Shown here: one piece after another, positions 7,056-42,909 of the stretch
How the letters are laid out: the number at the start of each line of letters is the position of its first letter
How positions within the stretch are numbered: the first letter of the stretch is position 1
Assembly: GCF_963921235.1 (NCBI RefSeq)
Contig: NC_086107.1
Span: 99,574,001 to 99,638,000 of the forward strand
Reading direction: 5' to 3'
Origin: Mobula hypostoma
Lineage: Eukaryota
Length of the DNA: 64,000 nucleotides
The notes under the pieces: model-generated
What the model was told of the DNA's origin: nothing
Database searches by the model: none
What the model saw: the letters and a program-made list of their open reading frames with translations, nothing else
Translations under genes and position numbers: made by a program

Positions 7056-7140
7056 GTAACACACACAAAATGCAGGAGGAACTCGGCATTTTGTGTGTGT
7101 TACTCGGATTTCCAGCATCTGCAGATTTTTTTTTTGTTTG
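7056..7140. mobile_element. Miniature Penelope-like inverted-repeat insertion
   Basis: Perfect 18-bp inverted arms (7056-7073 and 7086-7103) followed by the tail GGATTTCCAGCATCTGCAGATTTT that is shared with the larger PLE copies; no TSD seen. Confidence 0.7.
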
Positions 7141-9739
7141 GTTTCTAGTTTTGTTCCCATGCAGATCTAATTTCTTTCTCATTTCCCTCCTGGATATTCA
7201 TGAGGGTAATGTTCCCAATAAAGGCTCTATTTTCTAGAGTGGCTTTATTTTTTTCCAGAATAAAAATGGTTATCTTTTTTCCAGAAACATTTGTTTTTAA
7301 AAGTAATTCCTTTGAGATTGACCACTTTTGTATAAAAATTGAACATTTTCCATTCTGGGTTATCATTGTGTTGCTTTTTTTATCTGGGTGTATATGGCTT
7401 GTGTGTGTGTGTGTGTGCACGCATGTGTGTGTTTGGGGTACTCTATACTAACTAATTTAACATAGGTCACCTTATTTCTTGGAAGCATGCTTTTGTCATT
7501 TGGAAATTAATGACTATTTCCTTTAGTGAGCAGCCTTTAAATATTAAAGGGAATCACTTAAAGGAATGCAAAGCCACCCTTGCCCCTCTGATGCATACTT
7601 AGCAAAGTAAAGTTTCTTGAGATGCTGCACAAATGACGCATACAAGTTTTTAAAAATTAAATTCATCATTCAAATCCATTGGGTCATTAAGAATCACAGA
7701 GAGCTTAGTTAGAAACAAAATGCACAATTTTATGTTTTCCGCTTCATAAGAAGGCACAACAGCAACAAAGCTAGGAATTTGCCAAATAACTGATCACTCA
7801 GCCAATAAGAAATCAGAGCAGGGTAAAATCACTTCTGTAGTTCAGTTATCTTTGAAAAGGGATTGCTCCCATCAGATTGAGGGTTCTCCCTGGAAATTGT
7901 TTTGCAAGTGGGTGCTGCCTGTACCCACCATCAGTTTTGAGAGGTTGGGCTCAAAAGAATTCAAAGTGAGTGAATAACCACTTTAGTTAAAATGGGGAGA
8001 ACCCTGTTTGAATTATGTTCCAGAAAAATGCTATGTAATATATTTTAATGTCATTTACTCCCTGGCTTACCCAATGTTGCTAGTAAAATTGTAATTGAAC
8101 TCTACCCTGTTGAATTTTTTAAAATTGATAAATCTTAATAGTTAAATCACAATCCTCTGTCAAGTATTCTCGGCAATATGTTTTGGAGAATAACAATGTA
8201 TTATGGAGAAATCCAGCTTGTAACATTGCATTTTTTCACCACCAGGGGGACACCATTGCTTCTCCTTCCTCCAGTGCATTTTGGGTAGGATGACATCACT
8301 GTGGCTGACTTGTGCTCTGTGACTGTTGTGTATATTCCACAGAATGTTCACTCATTATATGAGAGCATTTCATTATGAAGTTACAAATAAAAATGCTTTA
8401 TAAGTTATATCCAGCAATCTCAGAAAGGGTACAACTTCTATTTGGTAGAACTATTACCAGGTTTTAGTGAGCTGTTTTGCCACCTTATCAGATACGTGCA
8501 TAAATAGATGTTATGTAACGAATATCATAGTCAAGGTGTTGTCTATGAAGTATGAATGTGTATGCGTGTCTGACTGCATGATCTGGGCAGGGAAAAAACT
8601 CAGTTCAGGCTGCTATTTGTAGCTAATTTTTTATCTTCAAATTGTGAACAAAGAAACATTCTAAACTTTTTTGTTGCATTTAATTCTTGTGATTTGTCAG
8701 GCTTTAGGTTAAGTGATAATATAGGAAGTAGGCTTCACAAAGGTGCCACCCCATACATGGGAGGTCCCTGGATACACAGAGTAAATATTTCCCCCAAGAA
8801 TTGAATTGTGCTTAAAAATAAAATCAACATTTTGGGTTTGAGTTGCATTTTGGAGACCTGCATGTAATCTAGCAGGGCACTTGAGGGAGAAACTGTTGGA
8901 AAACTTTAAGGTGCTCCTCCAGATCAGCATTAAATATGTCTAAACACACATGAAATCTCTTTTAGTGTTCTGACGAGCACCATTTTACTTGGATGTAGTT
9001 TGACTTCTGTGATAGTGACCAATGATATTTCATCGGGTAAAAGTGAAGATCTGCTTGGGTATAAAATTAAAACCCAATCACACTACAGACAACCTCAACT
9101 TGGCTCTAGCCCATGCATTAAATGTATGGATGCCCAATCCTAACACAGTCAAGTCCCACCAGCCTTGGGTCAGGTTGTCAGCATTTTAAAAGATTGAATC
9201 TTGGCACATATATTTATCAATAGCTGATCTGACCAAGTTCAAGTTTATTTGGTTTTTTTTAGGGTTTTAGATAAGGGAAAATAAAAGAAAGGGAGACATT
9301 AAAATGAAAGTCAACAGTTACAAGTTTGAAGAGACTAAGCCCAAGTGAAAAAATTGAAATATGTGGAATTGCAAAAAGAATGAATCTTTTGAGGGAAGAG
9401 ATTTTATTAAAATGTTTTCTGTGGCCATACTGTATTACATTATTTAACATTTCTGATGTTCGTATAACATGATTGACATACCAAACAAATGTTTGCGACC
9501 TGATGGTGCTAGAGATTTATTGCTGCTGCCTAATGGTGAGGTACTTATTTTTAAATAACAGGAAATTATTTTTTGATTATAGGTGTTTAGCATTTACTAT
9601 AGTTTGTTTGTTCCCATGCTGTGTCTAATTTTATGATGATTGACAAAGTGCAAAGAAGTAATTGATCAGAATACAAGGTAAATGTTCAGAACATGTAAAT
9701 AATGCAACATAAGGTTTAAGATGCTGATTGATAATAATC

Positions 9740-10200
9740 ATAAGGCGAGCAGAGTTGGGCTAATTGGCCCGTCAGGTCTGCTCCACCAGTCCATCATGGC
9801 TGATTTATTATCCCTCTCAACTCCATTCTCCAGCCTTCTTCCGATCACCTTTGATACCCTTACTAATCTATAACCTATCAACCTTTTGTTTTAAATATAC
9901 TCAGTTATTTGGCCTCTAAAACCATCCGTAGCAATGAATTTCACAGATTCACCATCCGCTGTTAAAGAAATTCCTCCAACTCTGTTCTAAAGGGACATCC
10001 TTGTTCCTTCTGGTCCTAGACTCCCCCACTGTAGGAACCATCCTCTCCATATCCTCCCTACCCAGGCCTTTCAACATTTGAAAGGTTTCAATGAGATCTC
10101 AGCATCATGTTTAAATTCCAGCAAATACAGGCCCAGAGGTATCAATTGCTTCTCATACAGTACATTCCTGGAATCATTCTCATGAACCTCCTCTGGAAGT
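9740..10200 (-). mobile_element. CR1-type LINE 3' fragment
   Basis: Similar to the CR1 3' ends at 24217, 33277 and 49621 (AAGAAATTCCTCC...TCTGGTCCTAGACTCCCCC). Confidence 0.7.
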
Positions 10201-11067
10201 TAATAATAACGAATTGATATATGATTGTTGAAGCCAATGTTTGAGTCATTCTAAATGGGAGATGTTTATAATGAAGCATGACAATAAATGCATTAATGCT
10301 TCAGAAGGTTTAATCTCACAGAGAAAAATACTAGTAAGCCCTTACAAATTTAGTCATGCGTTTATAATTAAGGAAGATAATTAGGAAAAGTGCCTTCTTT
10401 ACTGATATAGACTTGTAATGATATATTCATTTTTTAAAAATTTAGACCATTTTTGAACAAATATAGATTGTGACACTGTCAGGGTTGCTATTTCATAAAA
10501 TATTAGGTCACACTATATTTCTGAGATGTCTTGAGCTATTTTAATCAAAATTTATTGGAGAAAATGGGCACACAGTGAAATAAACTTCCAATATCTATTG
10601 CGTTGATCATAGTACTGCCTGAATACTAATTCTGTTTTCATAACGTTATTCTTGCTAACTACTTGAAAGCTCTCAGTCCATTGTCACTGCCATTTGTTTT
10701 CCCAGTACTCTGTTCTCTCTTAATCTCCATTAACTCCACCCTGAGCACATCAACCAGCATGCTTCAGAATATAGGAAGAAACCGGAGCATTTGGGGGAAA
10801 ACTTGCATGGTTACAGAGAGAACGTGCAAACTATACAAAATACACCAGATAGATGAGAGAACTCCTGCATGGCTCGCTGATGTTCATTGTGTTTATTTTT
10901 AAGTGAGCAGTATTTCATGATTGAGATTTAAAATCAGCATAACAATGTTCTATTTTAAAATAGAACTTGCATCAGACTAATCAGTTTTATAAGGACAATC
11001 TCTCATGCTGACAATAAATACGCTGAGAAAGAGGATGTTACATGGTTGTTCTTGTTCCTTTTCGTAG

Positions 11068-11244
11068 GAGGTTTATCGGAATTCCATGCCGGCCTCCAGC
11101 TTTCAACAACAGAAATTACGAGTTTGTGAAGTGTGCTCAGCATACTTGGGTCTTCACGATAATGATCGGCGCCTTGCAGACCACTTTGGTGGGAAACTTC
11201 ACCTTGGATTCATTGAAATTAGAGAGAAATTAGAAGAGTTACAG
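11068..11244 (+). CDS. LUC7L2: LUC7L2 coding exon (177 nt) with the second zinc finger (EVYRNSMPASSFQQQKLRVCEVCSAYLGLHDNDRRLADHFGGKLHLGFIEIREKLEELQ)
   Basis: ttttcgtAG acceptor and GTAAGA donor; CxxC...H...H motif of LUC7 ZnF2; IEIREKLEEL is the LUC7L2-type sequence. Confidence 0.96.
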
Positions 11245-12979
11245 GTAAGAAATGTGGCCATTTGCTAAACTCTTGAAAATGGAAGCTAGTTACTAGGTTT
11301 TCAAATGTTTATTCTACCTAATAGCTAGCTTTTTCAGAGTTTTACTCTAATAATCCAGCATTCTCAGATTTTGGTGCCACAATAGCAGATTTTCTGGATC
11401 GTTGGATTTTACTCTTACTGAAAACACCAGAGCATTTTAAATTCATATTTTAAAATGTTACATAGTTATATAATAATTCTTTCAGTGATCCAGGGGCATC
11501 TAAAGGAGATGTAGGAATAGAGACCTTTAAAGAAAAACATGGGAACGGGACTCAGTGTAAAACAAAAAGCATGGGAACAAGGACTCAGTGAGTTCAAAGG
11601 GAACACAAGGACAAGGCTCTGTGGAAGTCACGGTAAAACAAGAGTATCCTGGGGCAGTTGTAGTCAAGCAAGGCCTTTGAAGTGAGACTGCCAAAGAGAC
11701 CTCTGCTTAAAACAGATGAGATAGACTGGGGTGACTGGCAGTGTGTACTCAAACCAGACGAGTGAGTGAGGCCTCTGTAGTGAAACTTTTTTAGAAAGGT
11801 CTTCCTAAAACATAGCATCCCGTTATACAATAGGGGGTGCCAGAGACAGGAGAGATAATAGAAGAATGTGAAACATACCCAGCAACTAAGTCAATAGACC
11901 TTACTGACTTAAAAATATCATTGGCTGTCCACTTGAAGATTCGATTGACTTTAACACCACTATTGTGAATGATAATCTTGTGAGTAAGGAATTCAAACGT
12001 GTACAATTAATAATGATCAGTATCTGTAATTGATAAGCCAATTCTGTATAAAAATAGCAGTTTCCTGTTAGGACTTCAGAACAGTGTGGGTGACGGGTCC
12101 ATGCTGTTCTTCATGTGCACAAGTAAAATTTTAAAATTGCTTCAGTCGTAAGACCATGTGTGTTCTGGGCCCATTTACTTTAGTTATTTTATTAATAGTG
12201 ATGACAGTTACGTTGACAGCTTCAATAAAGTTAAAGGGGTGTGCATGCAGGGCCCCAGTTAGGGAGAGCTTGAGAATAAGGCTCCAAAGAAATTGATTCC
12301 CGAACAATAGGAGAGCAGATAGTTGTTTACTGTAGTTCAAATGAGGGCAGTTGGATCAGATTACAATGCAGTAGGGCTAAATTATTTTTGTAGCTATTAT
12401 AACTTACAAAATATTTGAAAACTTTCCAACTAAAGGTATCAAATAATTTCCAGGAGAAGTTTTGTTCTACCAAAAAATTAATATTGAGATTTCAGAATTT
12501 ATATCCAGTTCATGTTGTCCTGAGGCATAAACTTGGGTGCGCCTGAATTTTCGGTTACAAACCTATATTGCATTTTCAGTGTAGTTGTTGGCTTTCATAT
12601 TACAGTGTGGAGCTGATTTTGAGTTGTTGAGACTGCTGCTCATATCTCTCTATTATGACATGGGAAAAGTATATTTGGCTCATCAAGCATTTCCATCATT
12701 CACATTCTCCATTCTACTTCTGCAATCTATTCTTTCTCACGTTTACATCAACTCCCCTCTAATTTTCCTGCCACCCACATGCACTAGGAGTAATTTACAG
12801 TGGCTATTTAACCCATCAGCACAACATTGGGACGAGAGAGATTAAACCCAGGTAGTCCATGTAGGACTTGAAGTCAGTATAGAACCTATCACTATGCCGC
12901 CTATTGAAGCTGTTGATCAATTGGGCATCAGTCGTTTTTGCGCCCGAGAACAACAGGGTGAGCTGCTCCAATGGCTATT

Positions 12980-13890
12980 GGCCAGTAGTACTCGCATCTA
13001 CTGTGAAGAAGTGCTGGCTATTATTGACTGTTGCCTGAGCAAGTACCTGGACCTACTGCAACAGGTCTACCATGGACACAATCCCACTTGCTCTCTTTTC
13101 AGCCTTGGACCACCTGGACAACAGCATTATCTACAGCAGGCTGCTGTTTATTGATTATAGTTCGGCATTCACCACGACTATCCCCTCCTACTAATCAAAA
13201 AGCTTCAAAACTTGAGCCTCTGTATCTACTTTTGCAGTAGGATCCTTGACTTCCTGACTGGGAGATCACATTCAGTGCAGACCATTAATAACATCTTGCA
13301 GACAGTCAACACAGAAGCATGCTGAGCCCACTGTTCTTCTCTCTGTACTCATGACAGTGGAGCTGGGCACAGCTCAAATACTATACATGAATTTGTTGAT
13401 GACACCACTATTATAGGCAGAGCCTCAGATGGCAAAGAGGTGTTCAGGAGTGAGGTAAATCAACTAGTTGAGTGGTATTGCAATAACAACCTTTTGTGCA
13501 ATATCAGCAAGACCAAGGAATTGATTGTGAACTTCATGAAGGGCAAGTTGGGAGAACACACATCAGTCCTCACTAGGAGGTGAGCAGCTTCAAGTTTTTG
13601 GGTGTCAGCATCTTGGAGGATCTATCATGAGCCTAAAATATCAATGCATTTACATTGAATGCACGCCAACAGCTATACTTCATTAGGAGTTTGAAGAGTC
13701 ACTAAAGACTCTTAACAGATTTCTACAGATACACAGTAGAGACGTTCGGTGGAGGGCATTCTGACTGGTTGCATCACCACCTGGTAATGAAGCTCCAATT
13801 CACAGGATCAAAGAAGGCTGCAAGGTTGTGGACTCAGCCAGTTCCATCACAGGCACGATCCTCTCCACCATCGAAGACATCTTCAGAATT
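12980..13890 (+). mobile_element. Degenerate Rex1/Babar LINE
   Basis: RT motif remnants (LDHLD...[30 protein letters not shown]); ends where the Tigger-like element begins. Confidence 0.75.
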
Positions 13891-13897
13891 AGGTTTA

Positions 13898-14625: not shown

Positions 14626-14629
14626 TATT

Positions 14630-15270
14630 ATCATTTTCATGTCATGAAATCGGTTGTTTTGCAGCAGTAGTACAGTGCAATACTTTAAAAATTTAAGTTA
14701 CAATAAATATTTTTTTTAAAATAGTGCAAAAAGGAGCAAATGATGAGATACTGTTCATGAATTCATGAACTGTTCAAAATCTGGTGACGGAGAGGAAGAA
14801 GCCTCTGCCACCTAAGATTCTGCGTGTTTGTCTTCAGGCTCCTGTTTTCCTTCTTTGATAGTAGTAATGAGAGGAGGGCATGTCCCAGATGGCATGGTTC
14901 ATTAGTGATGGATACCAATCTTCTTGCGGCATTGTTTTTTGCATATGTCTTTGATAATGCTAGTGCTATTGATGGATCTGGCTGAGTTTACAACCCTCTG
15001 CAGATTTTCTGATCCATTAATGCATTAATACCTCCATACCAGACGGTGATGCAATCAGTTAGAATGCTCTTCATGGTACATCTGTAGACATTTGAATCTC
15101 CTCACACACCCAATGAATAAAAGTGCTAGCATACTTTCTTTGTAATTGCATCAACATGTTGGGCCCAGGATAGATCTTCAGAGATGTTGACAGCCAGGAA
15201 TTTAAAGCTGTTCACTTTTTCCTCTGCTAACCCCTTGATAAGGACTGGCATATTTTCATGCACCTTTCCA
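14630..15270 (-). mobile_element. Rex1/Babar LINE 3' fragment
   Basis: ORF 15126-15323 contains FKFLAVNISEDLSWAQHVDAITKK; the 3' UTR resembles that of the 5967 copy. Confidence 0.75.
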
Positions 15271-15665
15271 TTTACCTTAATTACTTCTTCTGAGGAGCCA
15301 TCACACTCCCATCCCAGCAACACCTCACCCTAACAATTCTCCTGTCATCTGCCTACACTGGAGGATAACTTGCAGTAACAAGTTAACTTATCTGCATGTC
15401 TTTTTCGGATGAGGCAGGAAATTGAATGATTGGGATGACCACACTATCACAGGATGATCGTACAAAGTCCATGGAATAGATGCCCAAAGTAAAAATCAAA
15501 ACTGTTCATGGTACTCTGCAGCAACAGTACTACTTGCTCCGTCTCCCTTGTATTAATAGAGATAAGCAATGTGTAATGTTGCATTAGGGTTTCTAATAAC
15601 AAGCAACACACATCAAAGTTGCTGGTGAACGCAGCAGGCCAAGCAGCATCTATAGGAAGAGGCGC

Positions 15666-15701
15666 AGTCGACGTTTCAGGCCGAGACCCTTCGTCAGGAC
15701 T
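15666..15701 (-). ncRNA. Minimal type I hammerhead ribozyme motif (inverted arm of the PLE)
   Basis: On -: AGTC-CTGACGA-A-GGGT(CTCG)GCCT-GAAA-CGTC-GACT. Activity not shown. Confidence 0.75.
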
Positions 15702-17203
15702 AACTGAAGGAAGAGTGAGTAAGGGATTTGAAAGCTGGAGGGGGAGGGGGAGATGCAAAATGATAGGAGAAGACAGGAGGGGGAGGGATAGAGCCGAGAG
15801 CTGGACAGGTGATAGGCAAAAGGGGATACGAGAGGATCATGGGACAGGAGGTCCGGGAAGAAAGATGGGGGGGGGGGGTGACCCAGAGGATGGGCAAGAG
15901 GTATACAAGAGGTATATTCAGAGGGACAGAGGGAGAAAAAGGAGATTGAGAGAAAGAATGTGTGCATAAAAATGAGTGACAGATGGGGTACGAGGGGGAG
16001 GTGGGGCCTAGCGGAAGTTAGAGAAGTCAATGTTCATGCCATCAGGTTGGAGGCTACCCAGACGGAATATAAGGTGTTGTTCCTCCAACCTGAGTGTGGC
16101 TTCATCTTTACAGTACAGGAGGCCGTGGATAGACATGTCAGAATGGGAATGGGATGTGGAATTAAAATGTGTGGCCACTGGGAGATCCTGCTTTCTCTGG
16201 CAGACAGAGCGTAGATGTTCAGCAAAGCGGTCTCCCAGTCTGCGTCGGGTCTCACCAATATATAAAAGGCCACATCGGGAGCACCAGACGCAGTATATCA
16301 CCCCAGTCGACTCACAGGTGAAGTGATGCCTCACCTGGAAGGACTGTTTGGGGCCCTGAATGGTGGTAAGGGAGGAAGTGTAAGGGCATGTGTAGCACTT
16401 GTTCCGCTTACACGGATAAGTGCCAGGAGGGAGATCAGTGGGGAGGGATGGGGGGGACGAATGGACAAGGGAGTTGTGTAGGGAGCGATCCCCGCGGAAT
16501 GCAGAGGGGGGGGGAGGGAAAGATGTGCTTAGTGGTGGGATCCCGTTGGAGGTGGCGGAAGTTACGGAGAATAATATGTTGGACCCGGAGGCTGGTGGGG
16601 TGGTAGGTGAGGACCAGGGGAACCCTATTCCTAGTGGGGTGGTGGGAGGATGGAGTGAGAGCAGATGTACGTGAAATGGGGGAGATGCGTTTAAGAGCAG
16701 AGTTGATAGTGGAGGAAGGGAAGCCCCTTTCTTTAAAAAATGAAGACATCTCCCTCGTCCTAGAATGAAAACCCTCATCCTGAGAGCAGATGCGGCGGAG
16801 ATGGAGGAATTGCGAGAAGGGGATGGCGTTTTTGCAAGAGACAGGGTGAGAAGAGGAATAGTCCAGATAGCTGTGAGAGTCAGTAGGCTTATAGTAGACA
16901 TCAGTGGATAAGCTGTCTCCAGAGACAGAGACAGAAAGATCTAGAAAGGGGAGGGAGGTGTCGGAAATGGACCAGGTAAACTTGAGGGCAGGGTGAAAGT
17001 TGGAGGCAAAGTTAATAAAGTCAACGAGTTCTGCATGCGTGCAGGAAGCAGCGCCAATGCAGTCGTCGATGTAGCGAAGGAAAAGTGGGGGACAGATACC
17101 AGAATAGGCACGGAACATAGATTGTTCCACAAACCCAACAAAAAGGCAGGCATAGCTAGGACCCATACGGGTGCCCATAGCTACACCTTTAGTTTGGAGG
17201 AAA

Positions 17204-19194
17204 CCCTCCTCTTCTTTATGGACACCCCGCTCTGGTCTTCTGCCTGCTCTGGATCTCTTTATTGCCAACTGCCGACGGGACATCAACTGTCTCGACTTCA
17301 CCGCACCTTGTCCCCATTCCAACCTCACTCCTTCGGAACGCTCTGCTCTCCACTCCCTCCGCACTAATCCTAACATTATTATTAAACCCGCTGATAAAGG
17401 GGGTGCTGTTGTAGTCTGGCGTACTGACCTCTACCTTGCCGAGGCACAGCGACAACTCGCGGATACCTCCTCTTATTTACCCCTCGATCGTGACCCCACT
17501 AAGGAGCACCAGGCCATTGTCTCCCACACTATCAACGACTTTATCCGCTCAGGGGATCTCCCATCCACTGCTACCAACCTTATAGTTCCCACACCCTGCA
17601 CTTCCCGTTTCTACCTCCTACCCAAGATCCACAAACCTGCCTGTCCTGGCCGACCTTTTGTCTCAGCTTGCTCCTGCCCCACCGAACTCGTTTCTGCATA
17701 CCTCGACACTGTTTTATCACCCCTTGTTCAATCCCTTCCGACCTATGTTCGTGACACTTCTCACGCTCTTAAACTTTTCGAAGATTTTAAGTTCCCTGGC
17801 CCCCACCGCTTTATTTTCACCATGGATGTCCAGTCCTTATATACTTCCATCCCCCATCAGGAAGGTCTCAAAGCTCTACGCTTCTTTTTGGATTCCAGAC
17901 CTAATCAGTTCCCCTCTACCACCACTCTGCTCCGTCTAGCGGAATTAGTCCTTACTCTTAATAATTTCTCCTTTTGCTCCTCCCATTTCCTCCAAACTAA
18001 AGGTGTAGCTATGGGCACCCGTATGGGTCCTAGCTATGCCTGCCTTTTTGTTGGGTTTGTGGAACAATCTATGTTCCGTGCCTATTCTGGTATCTGTCCC
18101 CCACTTTTCCTTCGCTACATCGACGACTGCATTGGCGCTGCTTCCTGCACACATGCAGAACTCGTTGACTTTATTAACTTTGCCTCCAACTTTCACCCTG
18201 CCCTCAAGTTTACCTGGTCCATTTCCGACACCTCCCTCCCCTTTCTAGATCTATCTGTCTCTGTCTCTGGAGACAGCTTATCCACTGATGTCTACTATAA
18301 GCCTACTGACTCTCACAGCTATCTGGACTATTCCTCTTCTCACCCTATCTCTTGCAAAAACGCCATCCCCTTCTCGCAATTCCTCCGTCTCCGCCGCATC
18401 TGCTCTCAGGATGAGGGTTTTCATTCTAGGACGAGGGAGATGTCTTCATTTTTTAAAGAAAGGGGCTTCCCTTCCTCCACTATCAACTCTGCTCTTAAAC
18501 GCATCTCCCCCATTTCATGTACATCTGCTCTCACTCCATCCTCCCACCACCCCACTAGGAATAGGGTTCCCCTGGTCCTCACCTACCACCCCACCAGCCT
18601 CCGGGTCCAACATATTATTCTCCGTAACTTCCGCCACCTCCAACGGGATCCCACCACTAAGCACATCTTTCCCTCCCCCCCCTCTGCATTCCGCGGGGAT
18701 CGCTCCCTACACAACTCCCTTGTCCATTCGTCCCCCCCATCCCTCCCCACTGATCTCCCTCCTGGCACTTATCCGTGTAAGCGGAACAAGTGCTACACAT
18801 GCCCTTACACTTCCTCCCTTACACTTCCTCCCTTACCACCATTCAGGGCCCCAAACAGTCCTTCCAGGTGAGGCATCACTTCACCTGTGAGTCGACTGGG
18901 GTGATATACTGCGTCTGGTGCTCCCGATGTGGCCTTTTATATATTGGTGAGACCCGACGCAGACTGGGAGACCGCTTTGCTGAACATCTACGCTCTGTCT
19001 GCCAGAGAAAGCAGGATCTCCCAGTGGCCACACATTTTAATTCCACATCCCATTCCCATTCTGACATGTCTATCCACGGCCTCCTGTACTGTAAAGATGA
19101 AGCCACACTCAGGTTGGAGGAACAACACCTTATATTCCGTCTGGGTAGCCTCCAACCTGATGGCATGAACATTGACTTCTCTAACTTCCGCTAG
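17204..19194 (+). pseudogene. PLE polyprotein (reverse transcriptase + GIY-YIG endonuclease), 5'-truncated, one frameshift
   Basis: IIKPADKG motif, GVAMG, RYIDD catalytic motif, Cx4Cx2C linker (CKRNKCYTC), VIYCVWCSRCGLLYIGET endonuclease with two downstream His; a 14-bp duplication at ~18802-18829 shifts the frame. Confidence 0.9.
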
Positions 19195-19500
19195 GCCCCA
19201 CCTCCCCCTCGTACCCCATCTGTCACTCATTTTTATGCACACATTCTTTCTCTCAATCTCCTTTTTCTCCCTCTGTCCCTCTGAATATACCTCTTGTATA
19301 CCTCTTGCCCATCCTCTGGGTCACCCCCCCCCCCCGTCTTTCTTCCCGGACCTCCTGTCCCATGATCCTCTCGTATTCCCTTTTGCCTATCACCTGTCCA
19401 GCTCTCGGCTCTATCCCTCCCCCTCCTGTCTTCTCCTATCATTTTGCATCTCCCCCTCCCCCTCCAGCTTTCAAATCCCTTACTCACTCTTCCTTCAGTT

Positions 19501-19536
19501 AGTCCTGACGAAGGGTCTCGGCCTGAAACGTCGACT
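19501..19536 (+). ncRNA. Minimal type I hammerhead ribozyme motif in the PLE 3' repeat
   Basis: CTGACGA at 19505-19511, GAAA at 19525-19528, GUC triplet at 19530-19532; stem I AGTC/GACT; loopless palindromic stem III (ACGT). Activity not shown. Confidence 0.78.
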
Positions 19537-20295
19537 GCGCCTCTTCCTATAGATGCTGCTTGGCCTGCTGCGTTCACCAGCAACTTTGATGTGTGTTGCT
19601 TGAATTTCCAGCATCTGCAGAATTCCTGTTGTTAGGGTTTCTAATATCTGGAGAGCTTTGAGGGAACCGTGCAAAAAAAGACTCTTAAGTATTGAGAAAA
19701 TAAATGTACAAAAGGCTGCTGTTCCATTGTCTTAGGAGTGCAAAAGCACAAGCTGGTTGAAGATTAATTTAAAAATTATGTTTATTTAAAAAAATCTCTT
19801 GGACTTTCATAAAGTGTTTATCTGAACTTGCTGAGATTTAACAAAATTTGCAGTCATCACAGAACAAAGTTCAGTTAGCTGTATGTGACCATAGATTAAG
19901 CAAATAGATGTCATTTAAATTTTATGCAGAGAAATGCTAAGTAAATCCATGATAAAGAAAAGAACACAAAATGGTGGGATGGGAATTTATCCTTGATCAC
20001 ATGCAGAATAGCAATGAATGTTTGTTGAATTCAGATTATGAATATCAATGCTATATCTTTCAATGATTGCTTGAGAATAACAAAAACTATGTTTTTTGCC
20101 TTTTGATCAGGTTATATTTTCTGTTCATATACTTTTAAATGAAGTGCTTGAATTTTCCAACCATTTGACTTATTCAGGAAAGGTTTATTCCTGTTATAGT
20201 GGCTATGTACTTTGCCATATTCTCCAGAGATCTCTTTGATTTAAAGCTCTAATTTATTATGTACCTTATTGAAATGCTGACTTTTTAATGTACAG

Positions 20296-23372: not shown

Positions 23373-24216
23373 GTATGTTTTCTTTTTTGGTTCCTCACTG
23401 GTGTGGCTACATCAACTATTTGAAGCTGGGGAATGAAGAGAAAATTATACTTGGATTTAAGAAGTAATATTGGGATATTCCAAAGTTATGTACCGATAAT
23501 GAAGTACAAGAGTCTACAAATATTACCTTCATTCCTGCACACATTAGCAATAAAAACACAATCTAGTCTAGTTTACCAGGTGAAGTTATCAATCTTCAGC
23601 ATCCAACAAAAGATCACATTCTTAATCTCACTCTAAAGGTCTCTGCTCTTCAGATGTTATTCAGTAGTTATACAGTCCTTATCAGGTGAGTTCAGTCATT
23701 CAAACCTGGTCATTACAATCTTACTTCAGATATCCTTAGTGAGATATTTACATTACAATTGAAACCATGAAATAGTACAAATTAACGTCTGAATCAATAT
23801 TTAAATGTGTTTCATCCAAGTTGGATGTACATTAAAGCCCAGCATCTGAATATCTGGAACAAATTAAGTGTTTACAAACACCTTCAGCCAAAGTGGTCAG
23901 TCTTGCTCTGTTGCCTCTTGTGGTATTCTTCACAGTGGCTAATTTCTAGGCAGATTGGTTTATAAGCAAATAAGGCTAAGTACATTTGGTATGACAGTGG
24001 ACTGTAAAAGCTGAAAGATTATCAAAAGAAACATCAATTCAAAATTGAAATATTCACAAACATTGTGCTCAAAGGAATTTGGTCCATTGTGCCATTCACT
24101 GTGATCATGGCTGATATACACCAAGCCTCAACTCTTTCTGAGGGTTATGCGGAACTGGCACAACTCCCCAACCTTTCAAAGTTGTATTTCCTATTTAAAT
24201 ATCTCTGGTTATTTAG

Positions 24217-24800
24217 ACAGTAGGTGCAGGAGTAGGCCATTCAGCCCTTCGAGCCAGCACCACCATTCACTGTGATTGTGGCTGATCATCCACAATCAGC
24301 ACCCTTTTCCTGCCTTCTCCCCATATCCCTTCACTCCGCTATCTTTAAGAGCTCTACCTAACTCTTTTTTGAAAGAATCCAGAGAATTGGCCTCCACTGC
24401 CTTCTGAGGCAGAGCATTCCACAGAACCACAACCCTCTATGTGAAAAAGTTTTTCCTCAACTCCGTTCTAAATTGTCTACTCCTTATTCTTAAACTGTGG
24501 CCTCTGGTTCTGGACTCCCCCAACATCGGGAACATGTTTCCTGCCTCTAGCGTGTCCAATCCCTTAATAATCTTATATGTTTCAATCAGATCCCCTCTCA
24601 TCCTTCTAAATTCTAGTGTATACAACCCCAGTCACTCCAATCTTTCAACATATGACAGAGCCGCCATCCCGGGAATTGACCTACGCTGCACTCCCTCGAT
24701 AGCTAGAATGTCCTTCCTCAAATTTGGAGACCAAAACTGTACACAGTACTCCAGGTGTAGTCTCACCAGGGCCCTGTACAACTGCAGAAGGACCTATTTG
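24217..24800 (-). mobile_element. CR1-type LINE 3' end
   Basis: ORF 24437-24625 (YTLEFRRMRGDLIETYKI...TRGHSL...RKNFFT) is the CR1 ORF2 C-terminus. Confidence 0.88.
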
Positions 24801-27668: not shown

Positions 27669-27721
27669 TAGAGAGATGGATGACTGATAAATAATTGTAG
27701 AAAACAAAATTATTTCTACAG

Positions 27722-33725: not shown

Positions 33726-34939
33726 TAATGTTAGAGACGGGCGACATATCACTGACATGTCATGAAATTTGCTTTGCAGCAGCAGTACAGTGCAAAACAT
33801 AAAAATTATAAATTATAAGTTAGAAAATAATTAGTGCAAATGACAAGTACCAATATTATTATCTTTTAAGTATTCTTAGAAAACTTCACAAGCCATTAAC
33901 TGCATAGCTCCTTCAAGCTGAAAAACAATGAGTCTTCTAAGATTGTAAGTCACTTTCATATTGTTCTGATTTCCCCACAGGAATATGTTGCTTATGTAAA
34001 ATTGGCTCCTTTTCCCACCATGGGTTGTAGAGGTTTAGTTGTCAAGTACATGATACAGTCATAGTCTTGCTATGTTAATGATAAATTTTCTGCTTGATGC
34101 TCTAAACTGACAAAACATTGTTAACCTATGCGTATTTATGCAGGCGCTGCTGCTATTTAGGCCACTATCTTAACTTGAACTATTGTTACTGCAACAACAT
34201 GTGTACTTCCTCTCCATGGATGCTGTTTTCCAGGTGACTGCAGAGTGCACCTATTATGAAATCAGTGCTGTGCATCTGTGATGCTGTGGTCTGCATAAAT
34301 TGATGTCTTTATTCTGGATCAAAGGGCATTTGATTATTGGTTGAAAACATTTTGAGTGTTTGAACTGGGCAACAAGGAATAGAATATTGACTGAAGCAAA
34401 TTCAGACAGTAACATCAGCATCCTGGTTACTGAGGCAGTATGTCTTGTACACCAATGGTACCCCGGGTGTCACTTTATATTACCTGAGGTGGAACTGGGA
34501 AGAAGTTGCCAGAAAAGACACCAAAGACCTCCAATCAATTCCAGCAGAATTCCACTCCCTTATTTGTTTGGTTAAAGTTAATAATTTGACCTCTTTTAAA
34601 AGCCCAGCAAACATGGGTAACGTTGCATTACTCCCCTTCACTCACACAGTTGGCTAGTTGGTAGTCACACAGCCAGCTAGTTAAGTACAGCAGTCACATT
34701 TTATAATGCAATCATACACTTAGTGCATCCTCACCAATGTGGTACTCTCAATTCATCCATATAGCTGACACAGTGTCTCAGGACTATGAAAATCTTCATG
34801 AAGAGTTATGACTTGAAGCATCAGCAGTTCCTTTCCTCCCACATATGTTGCCTAACTCACTGAGTTCCCTTAAGCAGATTGTTCATCCTAACAGCTATTT
34901 CATTATGGCAGCCATTTTCTATCAACACATTGATATTAT

Positions 34940-35120
34940 AAACAGAAAATCTGCAGATGCTGGAAATCCAAAGCAACACACACAAAAAGCTGGAGGAACT
35001 CAGCAGGCTGGGCAGCATCTATGGAAAAGATGAAGGGTCTCAGCCTGAAACATTGATGGTTTACTCTTTTCCATAGATGCTGCCTGGCCTGCTGAGTTCC
35101 TCCAGCACTTTATGTGTTTT
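34940..35120 (-). mobile_element. Miniature Penelope-like inverted-repeat insertion (181 bp)
   Basis: 13-bp TSD ACATTGATATTAT (34927-34939 and 35121-35133); inverted arms; tail on the left only; partial hammerhead core (GATGAAGGGTCTCAGCCTGAAAC). Confidence 0.85.
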
Positions 35121-35199
35121 ACATTGATATTATTCTCCCCTAACCTTTGACATCCTTACTAATCAAGAACCAGTCAATGTCCACTTTAAATATACTTGA

Positions 35200-36235: not shown

Positions 36236-37209
36236 TTGTAGATGGTTGCTTGGTCTTTAAGAGGGCTATGATGGAGTAAACTCAATGTGCCAGATGCATG
36301 GCAATGTGAAGACAGGCAGTAACATTCTTGTAGTGAAAGTACTGATGGAATAGATATCACTAAGTTTGTGCACCAGAAGTTCCCTCTGCTCCCAACAGAA
36401 GTCTATTTATAGGGTACAGACAATAATATCTCCCTCATATAACTAATTATTCACAAGGATTTAGTGAGTATGGTAGCAGTGATTTGATCTGACTCTCAGT
36501 GGATTGCAAAGCTGTGGGGACCCACCTTGAAAGAGAATCAGTGGCTACATGAAACAGCGATGTGCAACCTTTTATGGGGTGACAGCAGTTTTATTCCGAG
36601 CAATCTTTCCCAGACTGCTACTGCTCACCGCAGTATAGTTTAATACCCAAACAGGCCAGATCAACAATCACATATGTTTGCAGCTGTAGCACAGAGGACT
36701 ACAGCTACAGTAAAAAAGCACTGCATTAGAAGCAAATCATCTTTGAAAGCTATCAGAGAAGAGAAGATAAAAGGTGATTAGTCATGGCATTTCCACTGGT
36801 TTGGGGGGGGGGGATATTCCTCTACCCTTTTTAGGCCTCTTATTTTATTATCTTTTATCAGTCTTTATATTCTCTAACCCTCAACCATCAGGCTCTTGAA
36901 TCAAAGAAATGACTTCACGCACCCCAACACTCAACTGTTCCCACAACATATGACAAACGAGAAAATCTACAGATGCTGGAAATCTAAGCAACAAACACAA
37001 AATGGAACCCTTTGACAGGACTGCCAACTGAGCCCACAATATATGGACTCATTTTTCAAGGACGCTTCATCTCAAGACCTCAATATTTATTGCTTATTAA
37101 TTTTAATTATTTTTTTCATTTTGTATTTGCACAGTTTATTGTCTTGCACTGGTTGTCCACCCTGTTGGTATGGTCTTTCATTGATTCTGTTATGATTGTG
37201 GGAACATTT

Positions 37210-37690
37210 CAATGATGGGGTAAGTGAAGTTGAGTGAAGTTATCCCCTTTAGTTCAAGAGGCTGATTGTTGAGGGGTACTAACTGTTCCTGAACCTGCTG
37301 CAGTAAGTCCTGAGACTCCTGTACCTTCTTCCTAGAAGTGGCGAGAAGAGAGCATGTCTCTAGTGGAGGTGTGGGGGAGGGGGGTCCCTAATGGTGGATG
37401 CTGCTTTTCTGTGATGGTATTTCATGGAAATGTGTTCAAAGGTGAGGAGGCCTTTACCCATGATGGACTGGGCTGTATCTACTACTTTTGGTAAGATTTT
37501 CCATTCAAGGGCATTGGTGTTTCCATACTGGATTGTGATGCAGCCAGTCAATATACTCTCCACAGCACATCTGTAGAAGTCTCTCTCAGTTTTAGATGTC
37601 ATGCTGAATCTCCACAAACTCCTAAGGAAGTAGAGGTACAGCCATGCTTTCTTTGTAATTGCACTCATGCTGGGCCAGGACAGATCCTCT
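37210..37690 (-). mobile_element. Rex1/Babar LINE 3' fragment
   Basis: ORF 37360-37668: ITKKA..LYFLRSL...FYRCAVESILTGCITI.YGN. Confidence 0.8.
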
Positions 37691-38539
37691 GCACCTCTGA
37701 TCCCCTGATGTAGGCTGGCTCATGGACCTTGGGTACATGAGGTGAACTGAAAGGATAAGCAAGTTTTCTTTTCTTCCCCCATTTCTAGCAGAGTCTTCGA
37801 ATAGAAACATTTTCTGTTTCCATTTCTGTGCTTTTCCTGGCTTGAATATTGCCATTTTCTGTTTTTGTTTCAGGTATACTCAGCCTGTCTATTTTCTTCA
37901 ATCCCCACTGCTACTGAAATGAAAATTATACTCCCAGACAGATTTTCCAGTTTTGGGAATCAAAAATTGTTCACCTTTCAGTAGCTCAACAAATCCTGCT
38001 CATTATTTATGTCAAGTACAAACTTGTGTGTTGTATGCTTCTGTGCAACATCATCTGTGGCCTGTTCACTGTTTGTATTCAGCAAGGTCAGCCAAGTGCC
38101 TGTGACAACTGTTGCTACATTAATAACTTATGTCACAAGGCCTGCCTCTCCAAGTTCTTTAAATTTAGTCAGCACGCTTCAGAATAAGCTTCCCTGTCTT
38201 GGCTGGATAACCTTTGGAGCTGATTAAATGTTGGCCAGGAAAACTTTACTATCTCGTCTACTTTCTTCACAATCTGTTCGCAGTCTTTGCTTAACAGTTA
38301 CCTGCATCACAATATCAGAAGAAAGTGCCTCTAAAAATTAAGAATTGCTGTTTTCTCTGTAGGGTGTTAGTTTCCCTTGCACTGAGTTTTTGATTAGTTG
38401 GTCATAGCAAAGCCACCAAAAATCTACAAAGGGACAATATTTTCTAGTCCTTAGTTTTCTCCATACTACTACAGTTTCTCACTGGAACATGTGCAACACC
38501 CACAGTTAATTCAATATCATGTGCACTTTTGTATCAGTC

Positions 38540-39330
38540 ACTTTGGCCCAACTTGTTCACACTAATGTATTGCCCAGTGAACTAGACCCATCTGGACACA
38601 TTTGGCAATAGCCCTCTGAAACCTCTCCTATCCATGTTCTTGTCTAGATATCTTTTAAATGTTGCTAATGGGACCACTACTTCTGGCAGCTCGTTCCAAA
38701 TCCACACCATCCTTTGTGTGAAAAAGGTGCCCCTGATATCCCTTTCAAATCTCTCACCTCTGACCTTAAATTCATGCTTCTCATTTTTTATCACCCCCCC
38801 AATGAAAAAAAAACTGTGCTTGCACCCTCGATTTGCTCTTCATAATCCTATATACCTCTCTCAGGTTACCCCCAATCTCCTACATTCCAGGGACTAAAGT
38901 TCTGGTCATTGCAACCTCTCCTTGCAATTCAGGCCCTGAAGTCCAAGCATTATCCTGGTAAATCTTTTCTACATTCTTTGTCTCTCATTCTTTTTTCTAT
39001 CAGGGTGACCAAATACATACTACTCGAGATGAGGCATCACCAATCTCTTGTATAGTTGCAATATAATTTCTGGACTACTACACTCAATGCCCTGATTGAT
39101 GAAGACCACCATTTCAAATGCCTTCACTGTATCTGCTGTACCTGTGACACTGCTTTCAGCAGGCTACATGTGCACCTGCACATCCCTGTCCCGCTGTTCC
39201 CCAAAACTCAACTGGGCCCTAACATTCACTGTCCTTCCCTGGTTAACCTCCCAAAATGCAATAACTCATATTTATCTGCATTGAAAGCAATTTGCCAATC
39301 CTCAGCCCACATAGCTGATCAAGATACCCC
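38540..39330 (-). mobile_element. CR1-type LINE fragment
   Basis: ORF 38582-38794: FKVRGERFERDIRGTFFTQRMV.IWNELP. Confidence 0.8.
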
Positions 39331-39559
39331 TGTCATTTTTCATTATCTTCCACACTACACCATCACTCCTAGTATAATCTGCAAACATATTAACATTCAT
39401 ATGCAAATGTTTCTAAAAAGTACAATCCTATTGACATCCAAGTCATTATGTAAATTACAAATTCACCTTCAAATCGTCTATAATAATTTACAAACAATCC
39501 CAACCTTTTTATTGCTACTTAAAAATCCACAGTTTCAGACAACAAAAAGCTGGATTTAT

Positions 39560-39995
39560 TATCATTGGCTGATATGATGTGAAATTTATTGTTTCTGCAT
39601 TAGCAGGACAGTTCAAAAATACTATAAATTACAAAGATAAATATCGTAAAATAAAAAGAATAACATAGTAGTGTTCTTGAGTTTGTGGACTGTTCAGAAT
39701 TCTAATGGTAGTGGAGAAGAAGCTATTTCAGAATCATTAAGTAGGGGCCTTCAGGCTCCTGTCCCTCCTCCCCAATGGTAGTAATGAGATGAGGGATGGC
39801 CCAGATGGTGAGGGTCCTTAGTGGTGGATCCAGTTTCCTGAGGCACTGCCTCTTGAAGATGTCCTTGATGATAGTGAGGATTCTACCCGTGATGGAGCTG
39901 GCTGAGGCTACACCTTCTGCAGCATCTTTCAATCATGTGCATTGGAACCTCCCCTCCAGACCGTAATGAAAGCAGTTGGAATGCTCTCCATTATA
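39560..39995 (-). mobile_element. Rex1/Babar LINE 3' fragment
   Basis: ESIPTAFITVW.GG and ASSITG...IKDIFKRQCLRK peptides; 3' UTR like the other copies. Confidence 0.7.
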
Positions 39996-40669
39996 CTGTA
40001 TTTAACCACTGATTTTCCATAACTTGTAGCCTCTGCAACATCAGGAGCTTCAGAAATTAATTCCATTGTGTTAAGTCTTATGTCAAAGGGCAGTGTTACA
40101 AATGTGCTATTGAAAATTTGTGCATTCAACACAAGGACTATATTGGTGTCATGATCAGATGCCCAAGTCTAACTTTCTGAAACTTGCTGTTGAATTACAC
40201 TACTAGTATTAACATTTTGATACCATATCTAAAAATTGATGTGGTGTTTTGGAAAGGCATTTATCAAATACAGGGGATGCCCATGTAATGCTGTTCAGGT
40301 AATGGAAATTTGCCATTGGAAAATTCACAAATCACTCTCCAAAAATTTGAGATGTGAAATAATATTCACTGTTACAAAATCTATGTTGAAACAGTAAATA
40401 ATTCATTGTTTTCACCTCTCTTGAGACATGTACAGATGGCACATACACATCTTCATGTACCACTGAATAGCAATGTGGACCAGTTTCTAGGAATGCAACC
40501 CCAGCCCTGTCTTTTTGCGAGCTTGTTTGTAATGGACTTTATAATAATCTTCTATTCTTGTCAATTGTAGTTCACACATTCACACCCTCAGGATTCCACT
40601 ACTCTTGGAAATTAATTCTTTAACCACCTTGAGTTCAGTAAATTGCTCAGTCATTGATCATTTTTATTT

Positions 40670-40935
40670 TTATTTTATTGAGATACAGCACAGAATAGGC
40701 CCTTCTGACCCTTCTAGCCATGACGCCCAGCAATCCCCTGATGCCTAATTGTGGATCAATTTACAAAGACCAATTAACCTACCAACCGGTCTTTGGACTG
40801 TGGTGAGAGACCAGAGCACCCAGAGGAAACCCACATGGTTAGGGGGAGAACATACCAACTCCTTACAAGCAGCGATGGGAATTGAACCTGGGTCGCCTGT
40901 ATTGTATTGTGCTAACCACTACACTACCATGCTGT
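40670..40935 (-). mobile_element. tRNA-derived SINE
   Basis: A/B-box head on - (GGTAGTGTAGTGGTTAGCA...CAGGTTCAATTCC) and AATAAA-type tail; same family as 44415, 45565, 50640 and 55385. Confidence 0.75.
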
Positions 40936-41293
40936 CCCAAGTTCTTATTGTCAACTCTTGAAAATTAAACGGACTTGCAAAAGAAGATTGCACAGTTGTA
41001 TTTTTCTTGGACCAAATACAGCTGAAATGACTGAATTGCAGCACAGGTCCATTCTTTGGCATTATATCATTGCAAAGATGAATTACTCAATATTATGCTG
41101 TCCAGTTGCAGTAGAGTTTCACAAGAAAAACAGTAAGCAAATCCACGTAAGCATATAACATGGAAATGTTTCTGAGCATATTTACCCTTTCCGGTAAACA
41201 ACAGGAATTCTGTAGATGCTGGAAATTCAAGCAACACGCATAAAAGTTGCTGGTGAATGCAGCAGGCCAGGCAGCATCTCTAGGAAGAGGTGC

Positions 41294-41329
41294 AGTCGAT
41301 GTTTCAGGCCGACACCCTTCGTCAGGACT
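41294..41329 (-). ncRNA. Hammerhead motif with mutated stem III
   Basis: On -: AGTC-CTGACGA-AGGGTGTCGGCCT-GAAA-CATC-GACT; the ACGT palindrome is changed to ACAT. Confidence 0.55.
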
Positions 41330-42243
41330 AACTGAAGGAAGAGTGAGTAAGGGATTTGAAAGTTGGAGGGGGAGGGGGAGATCCAAAATGATAGGAGAAG
41401 ACAGGAGGGGGAGGGATGGAGGAGAAGACAGGAGGGGGAGGGATGGAGCCAAGAGCTGGACAGGTGATAGGCAAAAGGGATAGGAGAGGATCATGGCACA
41501 GGAGGTCTGGGAAGAAAGACAAGGAGGTGGGGGGGGGACCCAGAGGATGGGCAAGGGGTATATTCAGAGGGACAGAGGGAGAAAAAGGAAAAAGGAGAGT
41601 GAGAGAAAGAATGTGTGTATAAAAATAAGTAACAGATGGGGTACGAGGGGGAGGTGGGGCATTAGCGTCCGGTGCTCCCGATGTGGCCTTTTATATATTG
41701 GCGAGACCCGATGCAGACTGGGAGACCACTTTGCTGAACATCTACGCTCTGTCCGCCAGAGAAAGCAGGATCTCCCAGTGGCCACACATTTTAATTCCAT
41801 ATCCCATTCCCATTCTGACATGTCTATCCACGGCCTCCTCTACTGTAAAGATGAAGCCACACTCAGGTTGGAGGAACAACACCTTATATTCCGTCTGGGT
41901 AGCCTCCAACCTGATGGCATGAACATCGACTTCTCTAATTTCTGCTAATGCCCCATCTCCCCCTCGTACCTCATCTGTTACTTATTTTTATACACACATT
42001 CTTTCTCTCACTCTCCTTTTTCCTTTTTCTCCCTCTGTCCCTCTGAATATACCCCTTGCCCATCCTCTGGGTCCCCCCCCTTGTTTTTCTTCCCAGACCT
42101 CCTGTCCCGTGATCCCCTCGTATCCCTTTTGCCTATCACCTGTCCAGCTCTTGGCTCCATCCCTCCCCCTCCTGTCTTCTATCATTTTGGATCTCCCCCT
42201 CCCCCTCCAACTTTCAAATCCCTTACTCACTCTTCCTTCAGTT

Positions 42244-42279
42244 AGTCCTGACGAAGGGTCTCGGCCCGAAACGTCGACT
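42244..42279 (+). ncRNA. Minimal type I hammerhead ribozyme motif (best-preserved copy)
   Basis: AGTC-CTGACGA-A-GGGT(CTCG)GCCC-GAAA-CGTC-GACT; predicted cut after C42275. Confidence 0.8.
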
Positions 42280-42909
42280 GCACCTCTTCCTATAGATGCT
42301 GCCTGGCCTGCTGCGTTCACCAGCAACTTTGATGTGTGTTGCCCTTTCTGGTGACAGCTTTCTTCTCCACTTTCCCCATGAAGTTTTTTTTTGTCCTTGC
42401 AATGACCAGCATTCTATTCAGTCGTTAAACTGGATTTAATTTACAGAAAGAATGAGCCTGAGCATAAGAGAGAACTTCTAATTTTTGCTCCCATTGCTTG
42501 TTTACCCACTCTTTTTGAAGGAAGAAAGTGAAAGGCATTCCATATATAAAAGGAAGTTCTGCTTATTGATATTGTAAACATGTGACTGTACTTATTTATA
42601 AAGTTGTTTATTTTTAAGGTCATGGACAATATTAAATTTATTTATAAAGAGCTGTCCCTGTCGGCCCTCAGCCTGAACATCTACAGTATTTAACTCCAAT
42701 CTAACTCTGACATATGTGGACTGGTCTTGTTAGGCTCAGGGAATGAAGCCAGGGTCTATTACTGTACAAGAATCTGTCTACCTCAGGCTATGAAGTATGT
42801 GGTGACTCAATCTCTGAGCCTCTCTAGTGTAAAGAATTCAAGAGATTTATGACCAACAGAGAGAAGAAATTTCTCCTCATCTCCATTTTTAGTCATAGAC
42901 CCCTTAGAT

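Follow-up and report, generated by a model that had tools for sequence, protein, structure and literature searches.

Two-armed head-to-head insertions of a Neptune-type Penelope-like element in a ray genome and their possible origin by twin priming

Inverted insertions of Penelope-like elements

Penelope-like elements (PLEs) are known to leave inverted insertions. An inverted pLTR, a one-sided tail of 30-40 bp and a target site duplication (TSD) have been published for Pen2a_Av and its kin (PMC3846280) and belong to a general PLE scheme (PMC8557442 Fig. 2), and form C of D. virilis Penelope is an inverted-pLTR insertion of the same kind (PMC2377424). The papers on Pen2a_Av-type insertions invoke antisense self-priming or resolution by the endonuclease (EN), and the origin of the inverted one-tailed insertions is listed as open (PMC8557442).

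Biochemical evidence comes from PAc, a Poseidon element of Anolis carolinensis (Frangieh et al. 2024, PMC11167929), in which two internal starts of reverse transcription (RT) bracket the tail and a dimer is predicted. In vitro, both target strands are cleaved and extended, and the choice of start site does not depend on the strand, which alone does not account for one tail per event. The paper offers no validation of the later steps and deals neither with two-armed inverted products nor with microhomology at their junctions. It concerns Poseidon, a clade other than that of the element studied here, and the words "Neptune" and "microhomology" occur 0 times in it.

The locus described here is a stretch of 64,000 nt from Mobula hypostoma (the window), which contains four head-to-head two-armed insertions of a Neptune-type PLE with both 3' ends pointing outward. 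Like Pen2a_Av, the general scheme and Penelope form C, they combine an inverted 5'-truncated arm, variable arm length and an optional tail of 30-40 bp at one end, with TSDs of 11-15 bp rather than the ~8-10 bp of Pen2a_Av-type insertions. As in PAc (PMC11167929), two end points, separated in PAc by 30-40 nt, lie downstream of a hammerhead motif, which is a predicted one in the ray, and genomic ends fall on both, the ray side being known from its genomic footprint. In contrast to the AC-rich stem-loop of the PAc start region (PMC11167929), the inner end of the ray element is GU-rich in the sense strand, and a conserved fold was not found there (single-sequence z-scores of -0.2 to -2.0; a consensus fold of six arms with 4 pairs, 0 of them compensatory). 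The insertion structure and the two start sites are already published, and the idea is largely in print. What is added here is the placement of the tail on the 5'-shorter arm in three of the four insertions, which favours a copy of its own primed by each cut strand.

The insertions and the element behind them

A sequence-only reading had placed the four insertions at 7056-7140, 15599-19631, 34940-35120 and 41196-42341 and had divided the copies into two related families; both claims were confirmed, and both 3' ends of each insertion were seen to face outward. Family A comprises 15599 and 41196, family B comprises 7056, 34940 and a fragment at 58675, and the two are ~76-83% alike over their common end. 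A profile scan of the window revealed two further two-armed relics that had gone unnoticed, 55060-55190 with a single tail and 53399-53530 with an ambiguous one. Every PLE copy in the window is 5'-truncated, and as this holds for both arms of the two-armed units, a direct second pLTR is missing from them. The features are as follows.

7056..7140: mini insertion of family B; tail-less left arm on the minus strand, ~7056-7088; tailed right arm on the plus strand, ~7085-7140; TSD not found
15584..15598, plus: 15-bp TSD, left copy, 15/15 match to right copy
15600..17203, minus: family A left arm, tail-less, 5'-truncated; mirror of 17986-19602
17204..19631, plus: right arm of family A with tail, 5'-truncated; contains PLE reverse transcriptase, endonuclease and 3' pLTR
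19501..19536, plus: minimal type I hammerhead-like motif (CUGACGA ... GAAA ... GUC), read by eye against the published description; expected cut 19532/19533
19597..19602, plus: inner end point, to which tail-less arm ends map; putative RT start region 1
19603..19631, plus: tail; putative RT start region 2 is at its outer edge, which the four best-defined copies place at 19630-19634
19632..19646, plus: 15-bp TSD, right copy, 15/15 match to left copy
34927..35133: insertion 34940-35120 of family B, flanked by a 13-bp TSD; tailed left arm on the minus strand, 34940-35030; tail-less right arm on the plus strand, 35029-35120
36955..37030, minus: single tailed arm with internal deletion; partner arm not found
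41185..42352: insertion 41196-42341 of family A, flanked by an 11-bp TSD; tailed left arm on the minus strand, 41196-41667; tail-less right arm on the plus strand, 41665-42341
53399..53530: relic with two decayed arms; no tail on the left arm, that of the right arm absent or decayed; TSD not found
55060..55190: relic with two decayed arms; the left one (minus) long and without a tail, the right one (plus) very short and tailed
58675..58775, plus: lone arm of family B, beginning at the 5' edge of the hammerhead-like motif and stopping at the tail-less end; TSD not found

The left arm of the 15599 insertion encodes a linker CX4CxxC motif and a GIY-YIG domain in one open frame (16008-16940), and the right arm a reverse transcriptase with DKG and YIDD motifs in a 571-aa frame, with a frameshift near 18802-18836 due to a 14-bp tandem duplication. 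The matches to RVT_1 (E 2.2e-05) and GIY-YIG (E 7.8e-04) fall short of the curated cut-offs. Two motifs are invariant in all five aligned proteins: VIYCxxCxxCxxLYIGE with downstream histidines (the CCHH motif of the C-terminal endonuclease) and the zinc-finger-like CX2-5CxxC of the linker (C177-x4-C182-x2-C185). Among 8000 scored proteins, 2180 relatives reached E<=1e-20, some of them combining RT and GIY-YIG. A predicted telomerase-like RT with DKG and a predicted GIY-YIG domain with CCHH, together with one-tailed arms and variable TSDs, point to an EN+ PLE. An extra CX2-5CxxC motif in the RT-EN linker defines the Neptune (or Nematis) clade, whereas Penelope/Poseidon, the clade of PAc, lacks it (PMC8557442); by this motif the ray element is assigned to Neptune or Nematis, and membership in Penelope/Poseidon is ruled out by its presence. 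The core letters and stems I and II of the hammerhead-like motif are readable, and the motif is a prediction: Rfam returned 9 matches at E<=1, all under the gathering score, mostly hairpin look-alikes and none a hammerhead.

Arm ends, target site duplications and junctions

In each of the four insertions, one arm carries a tail of 28-37 nt and the other ends 1-6 nt past a GTGTGTT anchor. Tail-less ends lie at +2 (7056 left), +6 (15599 left) and +1 (41196 right) from the anchor, and at +2 in the 34940 right arm, where decay makes the register uncertain by ~2 nt; the tailed ends of the four insertions lie at +39, +34, +35 and +37. The 58675 fragment, at +2, does stop where the tail-less arms stop, as had been claimed. 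Of the tail of ~30-45 nt proposed earlier, the one-sidedness is real, but the upper figure is too high. Simulated ends placed five within 6 nt in 0.005% of trials when uniform over 100 nt and in 0.27% over 35 nt. Exactly one tail is found in five clear cases among the six two-armed units (four insertions and two relics); a fixed pairing of one target strand with one start site, and of the other strand with the other, rests on these cases and is not established.

Of the sequencing runs, 4 of 24 listed were used for contig alignment to 19241-19660, where the table of start and end peaks was empty. None of the 24 loose-end rows listed, of 1392, fell at the tail-less position, in a table that is biased against such ends; family B cannot be aligned immediately upstream of 19590, which hides its tail-less ends from this analysis, and contig joints skipping to 19600 were set aside, misalignment of family B being their likely cause. 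Across 19604/19605 the summed depth, by hand arithmetic, was down 24-28% in three of the four runs and up in one, which is not counted as evidence. No RNA run with the element was among those listed in the sequencing-run search, a result with no bearing on expression. The pattern scan gave 0 matches in viral contigs, and its matches in metagenome contigs (two) and prokaryote genomes (one) were dropped as chance, their similarity being confined to the 22-29 nt pattern; a protein-guided locus search of viral contigs yielded 4 candidates, 0 confirmed.

The TSDs of 11-15 bp attributed to three insertions withstood a chance control. They measure 15 bp at 15599, 13 bp at 34940 (13/13; 34927-34939 vs 35121-35133) and 11 bp at 41196 (10/11, one mismatch; 41185-41195 vs 42342-42352), and 2000 random flank pairs gave 0 with 9 bp exact and 0 with 11 bp and one mismatch. 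A TSD was sought at 7056 and none was found, and neither relic (53399, 55060) has a clear one.

These duplications bear on the idea that the units are compound, made either by two separate events in which the later insertion homed into the earlier one or landed next to it, or by subsequent recombination or deletion between inverted copies. Copy number is very high (123,325 and 99,567 contigs aligned in two runs), a few contigs connect ends of the two types, tail-less and tailed, on opposite strands, and a PLE protein cleaves its own ORF-pLTR junction in vitro (PMC11167929), all of which would suit compound units. However, a single TSD encloses both arms together in three of the four insertions, and arms within a unit resemble each other more than arms from different units: across 390 columns, 17 diagnostic sites are common to both arms of one insertion and 0 show crossed pairings, and the arms of 15599 are 98.6% identical over 1618 columns, with 7 substitutions, of which 4 are at CpG. 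Both arms of any one insertion derive from one source, and a compound origin is very unlikely.

Microhomology at the cDNA join, another earlier claim, is present at all three junctions open to testing: 3 nt at 41196 (chance 0.04), 2 nt at 34940 (chance 0.13) and ~5 nt with one substitution at 7056, the fourth, 15599, having its upstream element sequence absent from the window. The junction position differs in every copy, and a turn at the hammerhead cut site was rejected, as 0 junctions map to 19532/19533.

The tail sits on the 5'-shorter arm at 7056, 34940 and 41196 and in the 55060 relic, and on the longer arm at 15599. Since the spacer is thus found on either arm, the pattern fits two independent cDNAs. 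A single target-primed cDNA could instead fold back at an inverted microhomology, copy itself and halt at a fixed site ahead of the tail, which agrees with 15599, with the same-source arms and with the junction matches. Under such fold-back, however, the first cDNA must carry both spacer and tail, and at 7056, 34940, 41196 and 55060 the spacer lies on the arm that has no tail, which would leave the tail without a template; three of the four listed insertions contradict the scheme, which we consider highly improbable. A tail on the 5'-shorter arm therefore requires either that priming takes place twice or that an intermediate with two tails is trimmed. The latter is the main rival reading, a hairpin formed first, by self-priming on an antisense template as proposed previously (PMC3846280), with both arms initially tailed and one of them cut back by the endonuclease, in the course of integration, at a fixed site that lies 30-40 nt from the end, in line with the proposal of a tail through EN-mediated resolution (PMC8557442). 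Such trimming accounts for the strict one-tail asymmetry, the same-source arms and the short inverted matches at the turn, and permits the tail on either arm. Yet later in vitro work places both tail boundaries at RT starts on sense RNA (PMC11167929), and single arms exist with each end type (58675 tail-less, 36955 tailed); we regard a trimmed hairpin as unlikely.

Proposed twin priming on one source

Our preferred reading, to which we give slightly better than even credence, is that each two-armed unit is one Neptune-type PLE retrotransposition by twin priming and microhomology joining. The GIY-YIG endonuclease would nick both target strands 11-15 bp apart, as the TSDs suggest, leaving two 3' overhangs. 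Each target 3' end would then prime RT on element RNA from one source, at either of two start regions that lie downstream of the hammerhead-like motif and are separated by 28-37 nt. The two cDNAs would terminate at variable lengths, pair through 2-5 nt of inverted microhomology and be filled in, giving a duplication in head-to-head orientation that has a unique spacer, a single tail and a TSD.

Twin priming is reportedly known from L1, where Ostertag and Kazazian are said to have described in 2001 that both target strands prime cDNA, joined by microhomology into an inversion inside the TSD; the second primer reportedly lies far upstream on the same RNA, and the segments barely overlap. In the ray PLE, by contrast, both putative starts lie within 40 nt, and the arms duplicate each other in inverted orientation.

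Two fixed RT start regions with priming by both strands, the core of the sequence-only reading, gain support from PAc in vitro, in another PLE clade (PMC11167929), and from the local arm geometry. Its further suggestion that one cDNA starts at the RNA end is unsupported: both starts are internal in the only in vitro system (PMC11167929), no poly(A) was seen at the insertions, and contigs cannot show RNA ends. By analogy with Anolis Poseidon, both start regions of the ray element are probably internal to a longer RNA. Against twin priming, one of the four insertions lacks a TSD and neither relic has a clear one. For one source to template two overlapping 1.6-kb cDNAs, two RNAs or a tandem transcript would be needed.

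A bolder version is tentative and rather doubtful: PLE integration would be obligate, coordinated twin priming by a protein dimer whose subunits are committed to the inner or the outer start, always leaving one tail, and short run-off cDNAs from the 5' pLTR of the RNA would mass-produce MITE-like palindromes in sharks and rays. If true, coordinated twin priming would explain the inverted structures of PLEs and mean that two-site initiation, known from Poseidon, also operates in the Neptune clade.

Under twin priming itself, two short cDNAs would yield a MITE-like palindrome of 85-200 bp, made anew at insertion, which would not be a DNA transposon. MITEs and retrozymes (PMC8969392; PMC7229834) share with the ray palindromes a short, non-coding form with inverted arms or a hammerhead motif; unlike them, the palindromes have no transposase signature, are not tandem direct repeats and give no sign of amplification as units. 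That they are true MITEs mobilised by a DNA transposase agrees with the size of 85-200 bp, the inverted arms and the TSD at 34940. The arms are, however, unequal, TSD length varies (11, 13, 15 or none), the centre differs in every copy, and the same design scales continuously to a 4-kb unit with RT and GIY-YIG sequence; MITE membership was rejected, with equal terminal inverted repeats, a fixed-length TSD and one repeated structure all missing, and this origin is extremely improbable.

This PLE family of the ray is young, with 98.6% identity between arms, and its copies are extremely abundant; it offers a good data set for the question of PLE insertion, in which the tail on the arm with or without the spacer is a cheap statistic that separates the models.

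Paired arms and their end positions

Two-armed insertions of a Penelope-like element (PLE) lie at 7056, 15599, 34940 and 41196, positions claimed by the sequence-only reading that all held on re-inspection of the window, and each consists of two arms of one element end placed head-to-head with their 3' ends facing out. The pattern is real and was aptly described in that reading, and it is largely known already. For example, PMC3846280 describes inverted PLE terminal repeats (pLTRs), a 31-bp tail that is optional on one inverted pLTR, and target site duplications (TSDs) of 8-10 bp, and PMC2377424 reports for D. virilis that the inverted repeats vary and that a 34-bp repeat is present.

Insertions named by start coordinate, with arm ends relative to the GTGTGTT anchor
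7056, family B: tail-less end +2; tailed end +39, this outer position being uncertain because no TSD was found at the flanks
15599 (4-kb unit, 15599-19631), family A: tail-less end +6; tailed end +34; TSD matching at 15/15 bp
34940, family B: tail-less end +2, approximate because the inner end is decayed sequence; tailed end +35; TSD 13/13 bp
41196, family A: tail-less end +1; tailed end +37; TSD 10/11 bp
58675, family B, single-arm fragment: end +2

One arm stops short at its 3' end at a near-fixed point, as had been claimed, and the tail, the extra 3' stretch on the other arm, measures 28-37 nt in the four insertions, matching only in part the claimed gap of about 30-45 nt. The stopping place said to be shared by the tail-less arms and the 58675 fragment was confirmed: five ends fall within 6 nt, a result seen in 0.005% of simulations when ends were drawn uniformly from 100 nt and in 0.27% when they were drawn from 35 nt. 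The three TSDs of 11-15 bp were likewise borne out, and among 2000 random flank pairs none had 9 bp exact or 11 bp at one mismatch.

A profile made from eight window arms gave 15 matches of at least 9.9 bits, training arms included; the top score in five shuffled windows was 5.4 bits. These matches resolve into six units with two arms each, plus three arms that stand alone. Exactly one clear tail is present in five of the six units (7056, 15599, 34940, 41196 and 55060-55190), the tail state of the relic at 53399-53530 being ambiguous. Independent choice of an end by each arm predicts at most one-half one-tailed units (p 0.03 for 5/5, 0.11 for 5/6), and there is thus only a hint of one tail per unit beyond such choice.

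Every two-armed unit is a single event from a single source. When the four family A arms are compared over 390 ungapped columns, the two arms of an insertion agree with each other at 17 sites and no site is crossed, in a test that spans two insertions and has little power against occasional pairing of two different RNAs. Between the two 15599 arms, 1618 columns hold 7 substitutions, of which 4 are at CpG, together with a single 1-nt gap and a 14-nt duplication.

Identity and abundance of the element

In 15599, the DKG and YIDD motifs lie in a 571-aa frame of the right arm, and the endonuclease end occupies a single frame in the left arm. Pfam matches to RVT_1 (E 2.2e-05) and GIY-YIG (E 7.8e-04) are both below curated cut-offs, and the nearest named relatives come from Mobula hypostoma (89-94%), Hypanus sabinus (76-83%) and sharks (66-73%). 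A linker CX4CxxC and a nuclease CCHH pattern are invariant in all five aligned proteins. Since this linker marks Neptune or Nematis, not Penelope/Poseidon, according to PMC8557442, the element would belong to one of the former two, with Penelope/Poseidon excluded. What is new here is a putative Neptune-type element in a ray with the known insertion structure. In addition, perfect tandem duplications occur in only one arm of 15599 (14 bp, 18802-18836, shifting the right-arm reading frame) and in only one arm of 41196 (27 bp, 41393-41448).

Contigs of four sequencing runs (of 24 listed; four organisms) aligned to 19241-19660 in numbers of 123,325, 99,567, 17,456 and 16,760 per run; the element family is therefore very abundant and common to related species. 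Among the top loose-end rows, tailed ends lie behind 19627 in three of the four runs (427, 365 and 104 contigs) and behind 19633 in two (363 and 291), and the contigs continue beyond them as long, unrelated, T-rich sequence from which poly(A) is absent. The best 24 of 1392 rows included no loose ends at the inner end (19597-19602), with run X1, possibly the window's own source, counted in part and family B unalignable just upstream of 19590.

In a few contigs (1-3 per row, runs X1 and X5), tail-less and tailed ends from opposite strands meet tail-to-tail at 19598-19640, possibly through insertion into the element's own tail. At 55048-55075, a 13-nt tail-like motif (at 55048) adjoins a tail-less arm in like fashion.

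Models for the joining of two arms

Self-priming on an antisense template is proposed in PMC3846280. In a separate model, fold-back, a single cDNA would have to carry both the tail and the spacer, the unique part of the arm reaching farther 5', because a copy cannot acquire a tail missing from its template. The tail is on the longer arm in 15599 and on the arm with shorter 5' reach in 7056, 34940, 41196 and the 55060 relic; simple fold-back of one cDNA would therefore fail in three of the four listed units. We infer that two models survive. Two cDNAs, each primed separately, would be joined through microhomology; alternatively, a hairpin formed beforehand with two tails, one of which is trimmed by a nuclease, remains. 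Twin priming is a process known from L1. A literature search, mostly of non-subscription papers, found no combination of twin priming with microhomology for PLE inversions.

The microhomology invoked by the sequence-only reading was assessed at three junctions, the sequence upstream of the 15599 right arm being absent from the window. It is present at 41196 (3 nt; chance of at least 3, 0.04) and 34940 (2 nt; chance 0.13), and at 7056 only when one substitution is permitted (5 nt, otherwise 0); the cDNAs may have annealed there. The junction position differs in every unit, and none coincides with the expected ribozyme cut site. With separately primed cDNAs, MITE-like palindromes would be short products of the same reaction.

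According to PMC11167929, an Anolis PLE protein, for which a dimer is predicted, cuts both strands in vitro and extends them, starting at two internal sites that bracket the tail, the start site being alike on both strands. That PLE belongs to another clade; our element may likewise use two internal starts and two-strand priming. The suggested start at the RNA end is unsupported, given those internal starts and the tailed-end contigs without poly(A). Coordinated use of both start sites by one dimer is conceivable, if rather doubtful.

Hammerhead motif and other repeats

A hammerhead-like minimal motif at 19501-19536, 65-70 nt upstream of the inner end, was read by eye against PMC4209133; an Rfam search did not report it. 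Short copies start at its 5' edge and not at the cut site (19499-19510, with equivalents in 35029, 53445, 55157, 58675 and 34794), and a pyrimidine tract and AG resembling a splice acceptor precede this start. In D. virilis, according to PMC4209133, helix I is where the intron ends. The row 'before 19501' was among the top loose-end rows in all four runs (615, 444, 407 and 310 contigs), in part because family homology begins there. Palindrome size may be set by the hammerhead 5' edge acting as a third fixed point, through an RNA 5' end, a spliced RNA or an RT stall. Furthermore, a joint stepping back 35 nt, a tandem copy of the motif (19501-19535), appears in three of the four runs (3, 1 and 1 contigs). 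Minimal hammerheads probably function as dimers.

A 90-bp imperfect hairpin at 56450-56539 (arm match 78%) is unrelated to the PLE end profile and has only sub-threshold microRNA-like matches in Rfam. Other repeats are as follows.

Further repeats in the window
24214-24471 and 49623-49880: dispersed repeat pair, 258 bp, 89% alike
6200-6940, 13320-13890, 14830-15250 and 39690-39990: older dispersed repeat fragments, 65-75%
40670-40925, 45555-45815, 50640-50830 and 55380-55585: older dispersed repeat fragments, 65-75%
59549-59871: 30-bp minisatellite, about 11 copies
61356-63998: 20-bp satellite, about 132 copies, 89% matches, reaching the window end
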